A stretch of 64,000 nt of DNA, from IMG/VR virus record IMGVR_UViG_2929327430_000008, positions 3,805-67,804 of that record. One strand, written 5' to 3'. Position 1 is the first letter of the stretch. Each line of letters starts with the position of its first letter. Made by a program: the position numbers. The stretch comes from a virus. Shown one piece after another: positions 54,001 through 57,000 of this stretch.

Positions 54001-57000
54001 TTGGGGTTCACATGGGTTGCCGCGTTTTCTAGATGTGCTCCGGGTCTATTTGTCGAATTATCCGATTGTGGAGAGCGATTTGGTGCGCTCTTGCCCTTTC
54101 CTGGCTTCGCATTGGGCGTTTCTCCGAAGTTTCCACCATTCGACCATCTGCCGTGATCATCCCGAGGTTGATCGTCGCTATATTTGTCGAGCGCGCCGGC
54201 GAAAACCTCTTGCGTGAAAAATTTTTTTTTCGTCGTTCGCAGACCAATTCTGCTGCAATTTGGCGACTCCCTGCCCCGTCGTGATCGCCGGCACGTCGGC
54301 CATGGGATCGTCCGGCAAAATTTCGCCCATGATCTGAGCGGCGCGGCGACGGGTCATCATCCCGGAATTGACCAGGGCCACAAGATTTTCGCGCTGGACG
54401 GTCGGGTCGATCGTGGCGTCGTGGCGCCAGGCGAATTCGAGGTTCGGGGCGCCGAGCTGGATCAGAATGGCGTCGCAGAGGCGCTTGATCCAGGCGAGGA
54501 TGGGTTGCAGGCCCTCCTCTCGTTGGACATCTGGCTTTGCGTCTCGCTGGTCGAGCGGTTCATCTGGTTGATGAACGGCTGCGGCGACACCGAGAAGGCG
54601 AAGCAGACGACGCGGGCGATCCATTCGTCGAAAAAAATTCCGCGGGTTTATCGTTCGTTCAAAGCTCAAGGAGTTCGCGCGCGGCGGGCGAATCAAGCAA
54701 AATATTGTCTCCCAGTTCGAAAGCAAGCTTGTCGATCACCGCCCCGCTTCTTTCCGACGATACGTCGGGAACGTTCATTGTTGTAAACATCTCACGTCGA
54801 CCATTCGGAAATATTCGTTCAATTGTGATACGACGCAACTTTCTGTCAATGGAGACAAAATGGGCGTAGTCTTCAGTCATCTAATGATTCCAAATATTCA
54901 GTGGTGGAAGTGGCTTTCCTGACAGACAGGCGGAATATCTTTCAGAGGCGGAAGCATGACAGGCGGCTGCGGCTTCCGCGCCCCGACGACGCGAAATCGC
55001 TCGGCACGTTGCCGTATCGATCCGATCCAATGCCATCCTGGACAATTGCGAACGATCACTCGGAAACCGGCAAATTTTTCAAATATGGAATCAAATTCAA
55101 ATCGATTTCGCTTACAATATAAACAAACAACTCGCCAAGTTTTTTCTTCACTTCTTTGTCACCACACTGCTCAGTTAAATACATAGGATATTCAAGATTT
55201 TTAATGATAAGCTCCAACGAGGATATCATCTGATTTGCTTCTTGTTCCGTCATGTTTTCCTCCTCAAAAGTCAAAACATCCATGCCGCTCGGCGCAGCTT
55301 CGAATGCAGGCTCGCATCTTGTCGGGACCTCGGAAAAGCCCGTCAACATAATCGTCCAAACATGATGCCCGGCAAATCGGAATCGCGACAATGCATGAAT
55401 CGGTGTGAGCGTCATATTTTGTAGGATCCGACGCGGGTGATTTGACGCTGCTCTCATCGGCGGTCGCAAACCGGCCTCGCTCGTCGTGGCGCTGGTTGTG
55501 TTTATTCAATCCGACACTGACGACTTCGCCTACCCCTCGCTGCAATTCTGCGCGCTTCTATACGAGGACCGGTTGTTCGCCGTTATTAGGGGGTTGGGCG
55601 GCGCTCGCTTCGAGCCGCGCGACGCCCTGCCCTGTCACAGTCAGCACGTCGGCGAGCGGATCGTCGGGCAAAATTTCGCCCATGATCTGGGCGGCGCGGC
55701 GGCGGGTCATCATCCCGGAATTGACCAGAGCCACCAGGTTTTCGCGCTGGACGGTCGGGTCGATCGTGGCGTCGTTGCGCCAGGCGAATTCGAGGTTCGG
55801 GGCGCCGAGCTGGATCAGAATGGCGTCGCAGAGGCGTTTGATCCAGGCGAGGATGGGTTGCAGGCCCTCCTCGTTGGACATCTGGCTTTGCGTCTCGCTG
55901 GTCGAGCGGTTCATCTGGTTGATGAACGGCTGCGGCGACACCGAAAAGGCGAAGCAGACGACGCGGGCGATCCATTCGTCGAAGGCGCTTTTCAGCTCCG
56001 GCTCTTTGGTCTGGATGAAGGTTTTCGCGACGCCGCCAGGGACGAATTTGGCGCGCCGGCGCCTCGCGAGATCGCCGTCGAAATAGAGGTCCCAATAGTC
56101 CTGAAAGTTCTTGATCTGGTCGGGGGTCCAACTGTCGGGCACACCGATCAGGCTCTCTGGAATGTTGCCCTCGGTGTAGTAGTTGAGCTGATGCAACTGG
56201 CGCTTCAGGCCGATGTTGACCGTGGCGACGATCTGCTCGACCGGGGAAAAGCCGTAGGCGCGATGACTGCGCACGTTGCGCGGGCGATAGATGATGTCGC
56301 GCGTGGTGTAGTCGACCGCCGGCAGGCCTTTCAAAATTTGCTGGTAGGCGACGGGATAGACTTTTTGGCCGTCCTGCATGAACGGGCGCGGGGTGCGGCC
56401 CCAGAAATCCAGCACCGGTTTGATGGTGGCGCCGTCGAGCGGATGCAGGGCGAGGAGAGTGCCGGCGCGGTCGCGCTCGCACCAGAGGGCCGGCGCGTCG
56501 ATGACGAACAGGTCTTCCAGGATCATGCGCAGCCAGGCGCTCCAGTCGTGGACGCCGTCCGGGCTTTCGAAAAAAGTTTCCGCGCGGGCGATGTTTTCCG
56601 CGTCGGCGTCGCGGCCGGGTTTGGCGCGCAACGTCCAGGTCATGCGCTCGACCTGATCCTTGCGCGTCTCGATGACAAGGCGCAGCAGGTCGTAGGCGTC
56701 GGCGAGTGCGCGGAGGTCGGCGAAGGAAATGGATTCGTAGCCGCGCGCGCGTGTGAGGAGATTGTAGCCGGCCGGGAAATCCCATTGGCGGCCCGCGACG
56801 TCCTCGGGGGCGCCGGGGGCGATGGGGGCGGAAGGGCCGAACCAGTCGTCGGGCGCTTGCGCGCTCGCGCTGGAGCGGGCGGAAAATTCCGCAGGCGAAA
56901 GGGACCAGCGTGGCAAGCCCGCGCCGCGTTCAGTCATGTCAGTCTCCAGGTGGTTTGGTTTGGCGGGCGCGTTCGGCGCGAGGCGATCAGAGTCGCAAGT

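Follow-up and report, generated by a model that had tools for sequence, protein, structure and literature searches.

An amber codon in a phage portal-toxin gene is probably a recent nonsense mutation and not a programmed read-through site

Portal protein, cut-off tip and partner gene

The window analyzed here, a 64,000-nt stretch of the IMG/VR virus record IMGVR_UViG_2929327430_000008, carries a portal gene, an in-frame amber codon, a C-terminal tip beyond that codon, and several small genes and gene remnants farther downstream (Table 1). That the upstream gene encodes a portal, as an earlier note on this DNA had it, is borne out by matches to Pfam Phage_portal (PF04860; E 8.7e-17, 61.7 bits where the cut-off is 39.1) and to the PHROG family 'portal protein' (phrog_2662; E 1e-69). 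The dN/dS of the portal core is 0.10 against locus L012 and 0.11 against locus L001; decay of the whole prophage was considered and rejected on these values. Portal relatives are encoded in 589 of 609 pattern-matched IMG/VR stretches, and a search of a phage collection returned 27 records, all below 60% identity and none covering 80% of the query. The best of these, from Brevundimonas phages (~50%), align with portal residues 53-442 only and thus stop short of the tip. A PDB sequence search with the portal gave 0 matches, and a profile search (A5) gave one weak match to portal 8q7d (E 6.7e-4), uninformative on where the C-terminus is placed.

Table 1. Features of the portal-tip locus and of the cassettes downstream, in window coordinates.
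Feature	Position	Strand	Basis or remark
Portal protein ORF, 481 aa up to the TAG	55561..57003	-	PF04860, phrog_2662
Active copy of repeated portal 3' segment, residues ~341-461	55619..55983	-	Alignment to downstream copy
In-frame TAG	55558..55560	-	Probably derived from TCG (Ser)
C-terminal tip beyond the TAG, 97 codons, with linker, junction motif and Cys-rich domain	55267..55557	-	TGA at 55264-55266
Junction motif NKHNQRHDERGRFA, tip residues 18-31	55465..55506	-	D25 and G28 invariant in alignment A3
Six-cysteine domain, tip residues 53-97	55267..55401	-	Predicted helical hairpin, two CX3C pairs
65-aa ORF, GAGGAGG ribosome-binding site, candidate cognate immunity protein	55059..55253	-	Adjoins tip
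Orphan remnant, like C-terminal end of L053-type Cys-rich portal tail	54881..55045	-	tblastn
73-aa ORF, possibly immunity gene of L053-type remnant	54659..54880	-	97% in L001
Displaced orphan portal 3' segment, +2 frameshift	54263..54632	-	phrog_2662
Orphan tail: linker, DDQPRDDHGRW motif, Gln_amidase domain (papain-fold toxin 1)	53586..54262	-	PF15644, E 8.3e-7
Imm35-family immunity gene of orphan Gln_amidase cassette	53209..53589	-	PF15567, E 1e-8
238-aa ORF, C-terminal part paralogous to Imm35 gene (49%)	52356..53072	-	tblastn

Translation of 57003..55264 (-) meets a single stop, the TAG, followed by 97 sense codons to a TGA (55266..55264), and the ORF list for the same frame gives a 481-aa ORF with an ATG start (55558..57003, -) and a 93-aa ORF with a TTG start (55264..55545, -). 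The string GTC CTC GTA TAG AAG CGC GCA GAA TTG, quoted in the earlier note, was located on the minus strand at 55569..55543. Its description of a frame that stays open past the TAG into a motif-bearing tip is confirmed. The tip, of 97 codons, is effector-like and belongs to the portal gene, and the open frame is not random, since 97/97 residues align at 69% identity (E 1.2e-35) with the C-terminus of P0002, a fused portal.

The presence of a 93-aa ORF initiated by TTG could suggest that translation from the internal TTG (55545), or from another in-frame start, yields the tip as a small protein of its own, independent of the portal. We regard this as highly unlikely. As previously remarked of the internal TTG, inspection by eye finds no GGAGG-like site in the 20 nt upstream, and neither in-frame TTG is preceded by a Shine-Dalgarno-like sequence. 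A collection of 5.8 billion proteins yielded no candidate for a stand-alone tip ORF of 53-170 aa, and the matching residues are internal to one ORF in locus L025. Without the portal, moreover, the tip would have no evident route into the particle.

Neither Pfam nor PHROG has a family that matches the tip. Its junction motif is of a kind that also precedes the variable tails of relatives and of which giant polyvalent proteins contain up to 12 copies. In the domain that follows, C55, C62, C66, C84, C88, and C94 are invariant in 6/6 aligned sequences, and an AF2 model, built on 6 sequences, places helices at residues 52-72 and 78-91 (block pLDDT 74-90). Twin-CX3C helical hairpins are known from alpha-hairpinin plant peptides and from small Tim/CHCH proteins, and the tip resembles them in having C62-x3-C66 and C84-x3-C88 on two predicted antiparallel helices. 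A Foldseek search of the PDB gave no significant match: nothing was found at E <=0.001, the top hit had an E of 3.2, which is to be expected of a hairpin of 45 residues, and the vicilin-buried peptide 6o3q ranked 14 with E 8.2. A homologous Cys domain ends the Rhs fragment P0026, after its DPTGL motif. Of the stretches picked out with profile A3, 2/19 from genome contigs, 1/21 from viral contigs, and 1/21 from metagenome contigs were confirmed as tip-bearing; profile A4 confirmed 1/66 from viral contigs, again the L001 contig, and a search of viral contigs with the tip of locus L008 recovered only L008 itself.

The 65-aa ORF next to the tip matches no Pfam or PHROG family and has a GC content of 0.39. 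In L001, L025, L026, and L028 a homologue adjoins the tip on its downstream side (BLASTP E 8e-10 for window versus L028), so that the pair of tip and small gene is found in the window plus 4 loci and on two kinds of carrier protein. P0027 and P0028, 88% and 83% identical to the 65-aa ORF, point to further lineages. Because the 65-aa immunity-like protein reads as having no signal peptide, the tip probably acts in the cytoplasm, and in that case its cysteines may coordinate metal instead of pairing as disulfides. The family of six-cysteine tails and the small gene beside it would be a new toxin/immunity-like pair.

Exchangeable tails and displaced cassettes

As far as its sequence organization can tell, the locus is a polymorphic-toxin system on a portal, with a core, a linker, a junction motif, an exchangeable tail, and an immunity-type gene downstream. 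First, the portal cores of relatives are 45-97% identical and their tails are mutually unrelated. Second, the junction motifs are of the types QPRDxxGRW or HDxxGRF, and relatives' tails score above Pfam cut-offs as Gln_amidase, RNAse_A_bac (CdiA-CT RNase A), Tox-REase-5, AHH, and Ribonuclease (barnase). Third, an Imm35 gene follows the Gln_amidase tail, and the 65-aa ORF or its homologue, a candidate immunity gene, comes after the Cys-rich tip in the window and 4 other loci. Finally, the window holds an orphan cassette (54632..53586) with +2 and +1 frameshifts. An extension of at least 75 aa is fused straight onto the portal C-terminus in 52/87 unique loci, with 4/87 intermediate and 31/87 short, and the ORFs of the naturally short portals end -28 to +25 residues from the equivalent of window residue 460. 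Since direct fusion is the family rule, the ring evidently tolerates having all of its subunits extended.

Downstream of the 65-aa gene lies a remnant matching the tail end of L053 (tblastn 48% over 29 aa, E 3.7e-6) and, more weakly, those of L043, L045, L047, and L052. It is followed by the 73-aa ORF, which matches no Pfam or PHROG family and has a 59% homologue right after the short portal of L005. Next comes a second copy of the portal 3' segment, identical to the active copy at 345/363 aligned positions; the ORF at 54178-54726 that contains it matches phrog_2662 (E 4.7e-4), and relative to L012 it has a +2 insertion at ~54521-54522. The orphan Gln_amidase segment is 97.2% identical in nucleotides to the tail that L012 carries in frame on its continuous portal and has a +1 insertion in an A-run at ~54230. 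L012 corresponds to the window without the inserted cassette. The Gln_amidase tail shows 8 non-synonymous versus 0-1 synonymous changes, and the Imm35 gene differs from L012, as from L001, by 1 synonymous change and 0 non-synonymous ones. The 238-aa ORF beyond it has no Pfam family. Extra or orphan portal 3' copies are found in 23/87 loci, and the X3 and X4 contigs part from the window at 55640-55642, within the active portal 3' segment. This arrangement indicates that recombination within the portal's conserved last ~120 codons exchanges the tails and leaves displaced copies downstream.

Origin of the amber codon

At the amber position, the sense codon TCG (Ser) stands in L001, which is 98.2% identical to the window over 4453 nt, and in L025, whose product P0002 (76% amino acid identity; 432/565 positions identical in a full-length alignment with the window portal-tip) is a continuous 564-aa portal-tip protein with Ser at this residue. 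The X2 contigs, possibly from the same sample as L001 or a related one, have G for T at 55559 (+ strand), i.e. TCG. TCG and TAG are one base apart. With TCG in both L001 and L025, TAG is the derived state by parsimony; the polarity draws on two comparisons, because the exact tip is found on a portal in only two other independent lineages (L001/X2 and L025). Conservation of the stop was checked in the two relatives with this tip and found in neither. Simple nonsense inactivation, to which the earlier note had given equal weight, fits these comparisons, although the ancestral codon is TCG (Ser) and not the CAG or GAG guessed there.

Nonsense changes also occur elsewhere. L001 carries two others: a CAA>TAA change lies five codons upstream of the amber position and a TGC>TGA change within the Cys domain, and the X2 contigs read the same three letters as L001. 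L012 carries CAG>TAG within its Gln_amidase tail, and L008 carries a TAA within the linker. A stop followed by an in-frame motif-bearing tip is seen in only 3/87 loci (the window, L001, and L008), and in these same loci the short linker before the motif has taken three of the five nonsense events seen, a mild excess. The idea of dosing by a leaky stop would likewise predict such an excess. Apart from 3 nonsense differences, the tip has accumulated only 2 non-synonymous and 3 synonymous changes since the window and L001 split, so few that decay of the window tip, which is otherwise intact, is not yet visible after the stop.

We conclude, with a probability of about 0.85, that the TAG is a recent, lineage-specific nonsense mutation (TCG, Ser, to TAG) in a former portal-toxin fusion and not a site of programmed read-through. 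The earlier note's inference that leaky termination would put a few toxin-bearing subunits into each ring runs against the TCG in L001, L025, and X2 and against fusion as the family rule (52/87). In its selected form, this explanation holds that a stop in the linker is favoured for lowering the number of toxin-bearing subunits per dodecamer, rare read-through arming one or few. Three lineages do have a stop in the ~35-residue linker upstream of the motif (window TAG, L001 TAA, L008 TAA), but stop position and type vary every time and 2/3 are TAA; the second L001 stop lies within the toxin domain, beyond rescue by read-through; and the extension is made as a plain fusion in those 52/87 loci. 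The Cys domain and the immunity-like gene do show long-term purifying selection (dN/dS 0.09 and 0.07 against L025), but for most of the branch over which the low dN/dS was measured the gene was an intact fusion. The TAG is followed by an A, and an A after a stop is not the strongest termination context in bacteria. No stimulatory RNA structure was detected in 136 nt spanning the TAG (15 nt before, 118 nt after), where the fold has a z of -0.58 and 49/200 shuffles fold as well, and no suppressor tRNA was found, there being 0 tRNA genes in the window and 0 in the whole 67.8-kb record, the extent of that search. Read-through of Qbeta A1 and the G/GT frameshift of tail chaperones use recoding sites that are conserved among relatives and have a defined context. 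The window resembles Qbeta A1 and G/GT in the in-frame stop between a structural protein and a C-terminal extension, but the nearest relatives lack this stop, and other stops lie at other positions. Selected leaky termination therefore appears improbable, and a trace of extended portal made by basal amber read-through is possible.

The TAG might also be a sequencing or assembly error, or be read as an amino acid in the phage or its host, given that 0/11 other confident genes checked end in TAG, with TGA or TAA used in its place. Against this, no base differs between the window and the X1 contigs, from an isolate run, over 54900-55768, TAG included (depth figure 405), though X1 may be the window's own source; the X3-X20 runs cover small shares of the stretch only. 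Portals end naturally in TAG in L002, L003, L009, L010, L012, L016, L018, and L019, the record is without tRNA genes, and the portal core, terminase, protease, and other PHROG-matched genes are free of in-frame TAG. Error or reassignment is thus very improbable. Pyrrolysine or any other reassigned reading of TAG was rejected, the ancestral codon being Ser and relatives using TAG as a true stop.

A nonsense mutation at this site would leave a 481-aa portal close in size to the naturally short portals of relatives, so portal assembly should be unaffected. The six-cysteine tip would no longer be produced, barring basal amber read-through in the host, and the 65-aa immunity-like gene would stay intact with its own strong ribosome-binding site. 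Other nonsense mutations in relatives' tails suggest that such loss of the toxin with the immunity kept has occurred repeatedly, a reading based on tails with nonsense changes beside portal cores and immunity genes under purifying selection. From intact alleles, the tail would be held within the capsid on the portal crown, be cut near the junction motif, and exit with the DNA. That the tip is toxic, that the 65-aa protein neutralizes it, and that it is cleaved at the motif and injected are inferences. The pattern of disarmed toxins next to immunity genes and portals that are intact suggests that prophages often retain the protection and give up the weapon. We give little credence to the further idea that linker stops are more than debris and act as a single-base switch, recurrent and open to selection, that sets the dose or turns the toxin on and off; the three independent stops among the few close relatives sampled would be its footprint. 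If such a switch were real, lysogen populations would shift among all-twelve-armed, rarely armed, and disarmed-but-immune states, and the cost of a toxin on an essential structural ring would be tuned. Settling the amber codon as a nonsense mutation would dismiss a tempting recoding story; the codon itself is ordinary, and the system around it is uncommon and partly described.

Relation to known toxin systems

In CdiA-CT/CdiI systems and Rhs arrays, a cassette of tail and immunity gene recombines into the 3' end of the carrier and the old pair is displaced downstream, with a conserved junction motif before the variable part. The portal locus shares with both the insertion of cassettes, the displaced tail and immunity gene, and the junction motif, and with Rhs also a tip homologue at an Rhs C-terminus (P0026). 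It differs in that the carrier is a virion protein and not a secreted filament or shell, and in that the portal's last ~120 codons serve as the recombination repeat. Titles and abstract openings returned by a literature search contain no report of portal-borne polymorphic toxins with orphan cassettes.

Fusions of PBECR, 2H, and InPase domains to portal domains, with packaging and injection predicted, are described in passages of a study of phage polyvalent proteins (Iyer et al., 2017, PMC5512222). The window is linked to such proteins by its junction motif, which recurs between domains of giant ART-PolyVal/LPD1/InPase/Zeta proteins and is a candidate processing site or cassette boundary. Those passages are without immunity genes, cassette replacement, orphan portal 3' copies, or the junction motif, and 'linker', 'GRW', and 'GRF' have 0 occurrences in the text searched (PMC5512222).

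A further comparison is with the MuF toxins, and it concerns the carrier. Portals are 12-mers. For the MuF protein gp7 of SPP1, one to two copies in each capsid are given in passages of Jamet et al. (2017, PMC5576092) and Zhang et al. (2012, PMC3482391), the papers in which MuF polymorphic toxins of temperate phages are described. According to these passages, MuF toxins are like the system studied here in having a head-internal structural carrier with variable C-terminal toxins and downstream immunity genes, in their prophage context by terminase and portal genes, and in the proposed delivery from the capsid with the DNA (PMC3482391, PMC5576092). They are unlike it in that the carrier here is the portal itself: the MuF domain (PF04233/PF06152) is absent from the window gene, which matches only Phage_portal and, below threshold, Portal_Mu. 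The two kinds of carrier are sometimes fused, given that a MuF domain scores above the Pfam cut-off in 9/50 relatives' tails scanned. The locus thus works like a MuF toxin without being a MuF member, and it would extend phage-borne polymorphic toxins from MuF to the portal.

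Derivation of the amber codon

The 481-aa ORF encodes a portal protein (Pfam Phage_portal, E 8.7e-17; phrog_2662 'portal protein', E 1e-69), and no Pfam or PHROG family matched either the 97-codon tip in frame behind its TAG or the small ORF that follows. ORF coordinates and translation bear out the earlier note's description of a portal, a TAG and a frame left open into the tip, and sequence inspection likewise found no ribosome-binding site ahead of the tip's in-frame TTGs, as had been claimed. GC content is 0.62-0.67 in the portal, about 0.56 in the tip and as low as 0.39 immediately downstream, a composition break as expected for an imported cassette.

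A tip-restricted protein search admitting portal-sized proteins yielded 34 candidates and a sole match, P0002, a 564-aa protein for which a portal domain had been precomputed and which is 69% identical across the whole tip. End-to-end alignment with the window's protein gave 432/565 identical positions (76%), with serine at the window's stop position. The P0002 locus (L025, from a contig in an uncultured alphaproteobacterial MAG) reads TCG at this codon, as does the nearest relative (L001, a viral contig with 98.2% identity over 4453 nt), which has two stops of its own, CAA>TAA 5 codons upstream and TGC>TGA within the cysteine domain. Contigs from a freshwater metagenome run (X2) carry the same three letters as L001 and contigs from an isolate run (X1) are identical to the window over 54900-55768, although either run is possibly non-independent of the records compared. 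Because sister and outgroup both have TCG, TAG is the derived state, and the alignments indicate an origin from a sense TCG codon. The earlier note had suggested looking for a stop conserved here in relatives; none is, and a sense codon in close relatives is the outcome it had named beforehand as contradicting read-through. By itself, the amber codon is ordinary.

Other tests of recoding were also negative. The RNA fold of 136 nt across the TAG is no better than shuffles (z -0.58), tRNA genes are absent from the window and from the complete 67.8-kb record, and no TAG interruption was found in the window's conserved genes. Relatives' portal genes use TAG as a true stop, and a search of a large protein collection found no stand-alone tip protein of 53-170 aa.

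Between the window and L025, dN/dS is 0.17 for the portal core, 0.76 for linker and motif, 0.09 for the cysteine domain and 0.07 for the small gene. Among close relatives the portal core gives 0.10-0.11, so the element is maintained. The tips of the window and L001 differ by three nonsense, two non-synonymous and three synonymous changes. Among close relatives, differences in the Gln_amidase tail number 8 non-synonymous and 0-1 synonymous, with CAG>TAG in related locus L012 in addition, and the Imm35 gene has zero protein-changing differences. These small counts can be read as tails having been disarmed repeatedly while immunity was kept. The L012 portal-Gln_amidase gene ends at this TAG (L012:4957-4959), where the window's orphan copy (53586-54011) reads CAG; the change removes the last 34 residues and is one more nonsense mutation to have arisen independently within a toxin tail.

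Cassette replacement at the portal 3' end

Features of the portal locus and Pfam assignments of tails in related loci
Feature	Location	Strand	Remarks
Portal ORF, 481 aa	57003..55561	-	stops at TAG
Amber stop TAG	55560..55558	-	ends 481-aa portal ORF
Tip, 97 sense codons in portal frame	up to TGA 55266..55264	-	frame open past TAG
Small ORF, 65 aa	55253..55059	-	GAGGAGG site five bases ahead of ATG
Active copy of portal 3' segment	55983..55619		reference for downstream copy
Second copy of portal's last ~120 codons	54632..54263		downstream of tip; 345/363 identical to active copy
Further remnant and 73-aa ORF	55045..54881 (remnant)		part of inserted stretch
Gln_amidase tail	L012		above cut-off
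CdiA-CT RNase A tail	L015		above cut-off
Tox-REase-5 tail	L019		above cut-off
DUF6883 tails	L021, L037		above cut-off
AHH tail	L039		above cut-off
Barnase-type Ribonuclease tail	L102		above cut-off
MuF tails, 9 of 50			above MuF cut-off; two also match PBECR3 (L098 exceeding the PBECR3 cut-off, L083 slightly short of it)
MuF, 2 further tails			below MuF cut-off
Peptidase_M23 tail	L092		below cut-off

The downstream portal-3' copy has a 2-nt insertion relative to the active copy and continues as linker, DDQPRDDHGRW motif and Gln_amidase domain, followed by an Imm35 gene. The orphan Gln_amidase tail also has one extra nucleotide within an A-run; this +1 frameshift site (54229-54240, minus strand) is a slippage-prone tract of nine A then five T. 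On either side of the tip cassette, which it lacks, L012 matches the window at 97-98% identity, and its Gln_amidase tail is fused in frame to the portal as a single 652-aa ORF. The L012 arrangement thus implies that the window's cassette was inserted and an older tail displaced. By this comparison, tip, small gene and remnant entered the portal 3' end by recombination. Additional portal-3' copies occur at 23 of 87 loci, and the anatomy is that of a polymorphic toxin locus with orphan cassettes. The stretch 3' of L025's intact portal-tip gene (L025:4500-5900) contains an additional orphan motif (FDFDQPRAADGRW) with a cysteine-rich tail of a different kind, as well as a small ORF and one more portal-3' fragment.

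Homologues of the 65-aa ORF lie immediately 3' of the tip in L001, L025, L026 and L028, with 25-29% identity in the last two (window vs L028, BLASTP E 8e-10). Since the tip of L026 and L028 sits on a non-portal ORF and the small gene is still adjacent, the pair travels together across carriers, a pattern suggesting a putative toxin-immunity pair.

Elsewhere in the window, an integrase gene (46815-48026, minus strand) directly follows the head module's protease and phrog_13692 gene (48633-51161, minus strand), and no tail genes were recognised from 46.8 kb to the end of the record at 64 kb. Genes for primase and helicase occupy 38980-41759. An oppositely oriented 380-aa ORF within the head module (51176-52318, plus strand; phrog_5879, function unknown, E 7e-21) lies in a region kept in relatives directly 3' of short portals, and a 1228-aa ORF (31116-34802, minus strand) is endolysin-like at its N-terminus (phrog_15649, residues 11-115) and has four phrog_5880 stretches.

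Portal tails, junction motif and cysteine domain

Relatives were gathered with the window protein (24 loci) and with a 15-sequence portal alignment, which matched 609 stretches, 589 of them encoding relatives; the best 80 were retained (77 loci). Sixteen loci were left out as repeated contig stretches or near-identical (L014, L017, L027, L029-L036, L038, L048, L054, L106, L107) and five as unusable (L024, partial; L042 and L080, extending past the contig end; L026 and L028, not portal loci), leaving 87 including the window, with some very similar pairs (e.g., L056/L057, L097/L099). In this set, drawn from the best-80 scan and the 24 loci, 52 of 87 loci continue without interruption for 75 residues or more past the portal core; 4 are intermediate and 31 short. 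The in-frame continuation was inspected by eye in all 35 of the latter, and only the window, L001 and L008 have a stop followed by a motif-bearing tip. In L018 (same contig as L036), an in-frame stop replaces a tyrosine of relatives in the conserved DYWD.YF portal-core segment, suggesting a defective prophage copy or an error in the record.

Extensions begin with linker and junction motif (..QPRDxxGRW/F, ..HDxxGRF, ..QPRVPAGNxxGGQW or ..HPGWPAGTPGGRGGKF) and continue as mutually unrelated tails. Fifty tails were scanned against Pfam, L025 and L099 being left out, and the remaining 30 beyond those tabulated had no match.

An exhaustive profile-free protein search with the tip returned 24 proteins at E 1e-3 or better, the majority giant (1000-5100 aa), with the motif region repeated 3-12 times. 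Their ADP-ribosyltransferase, ART-PolyVal, InPase, Zeta or LPD1 domains identify them as polyvalent proteins, and recurrence of the motif there points to a boundary that generally separates effector modules. In these proteins the motif may lie at processing sites or where modules meet, and may be cleaved. Giant proteins with HDxxGRF/QPRDxxGRW-type repeats include P0003, P0004, P0005 and P0006; P0003 has nine motif matches and eight ADP-ribosyltransferase stretches.

The cysteine domain recurs after the same kind of motif in P0008, P0011 and P0021 (140-190 aa), and at the C-terminal end of an Rhs fragment (P0026) immediately after the DPTGL motif. None of the six cysteines varies among six aligned sequences. 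AlphaFold, with only these six sequences as input, predicted antiparallel helices (52-72 and 78-91; block pLDDT 74-90), for which Foldseek returned no significant match. At L026:3632-4219 and L028:325-882, the same cysteine-rich tail and junction motif lie on a 185-195-aa ORF whose neighbours resemble, by eye, phage structural genes; this ORF would add a third carrier type to portal and Rhs.

Proposed working and comparison with known systems

The locus carries a portal-tail fusion gene with a derived amber codon and a replaced cassette, its portal core and small gene both being intact. The 481-aa cut portal would still function, because natural short portals terminate at about the same position, and the tip would be essentially absent. 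Basal amber read-through could arm an occasional particle, those with at least one extended subunit making up a fraction some twelvefold the read-through rate per codon; there is no indication that such arming is selected for. In intact alleles, by analogy, the tail would lie inside the capsid, be freed near the motif and exit with the DNA, while the small gene would protect lysogens.

Among the papers listed by full-text literature searches, none described this junction motif, this cysteine domain, or tails borne on portals together with immunity genes and orphan portal-3' cassettes. Passages of published work do describe MuF-borne polymorphic toxins (PMC3482391, PMC5576092) and portal-fused PBECR, 2H and InPase domains (PMC5512222). 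In these passages, exit from the capsid with the DNA is proposed for MuF toxins and for portal-fused effectors alike, and portal tails of the window's type would probably leave by the same route.
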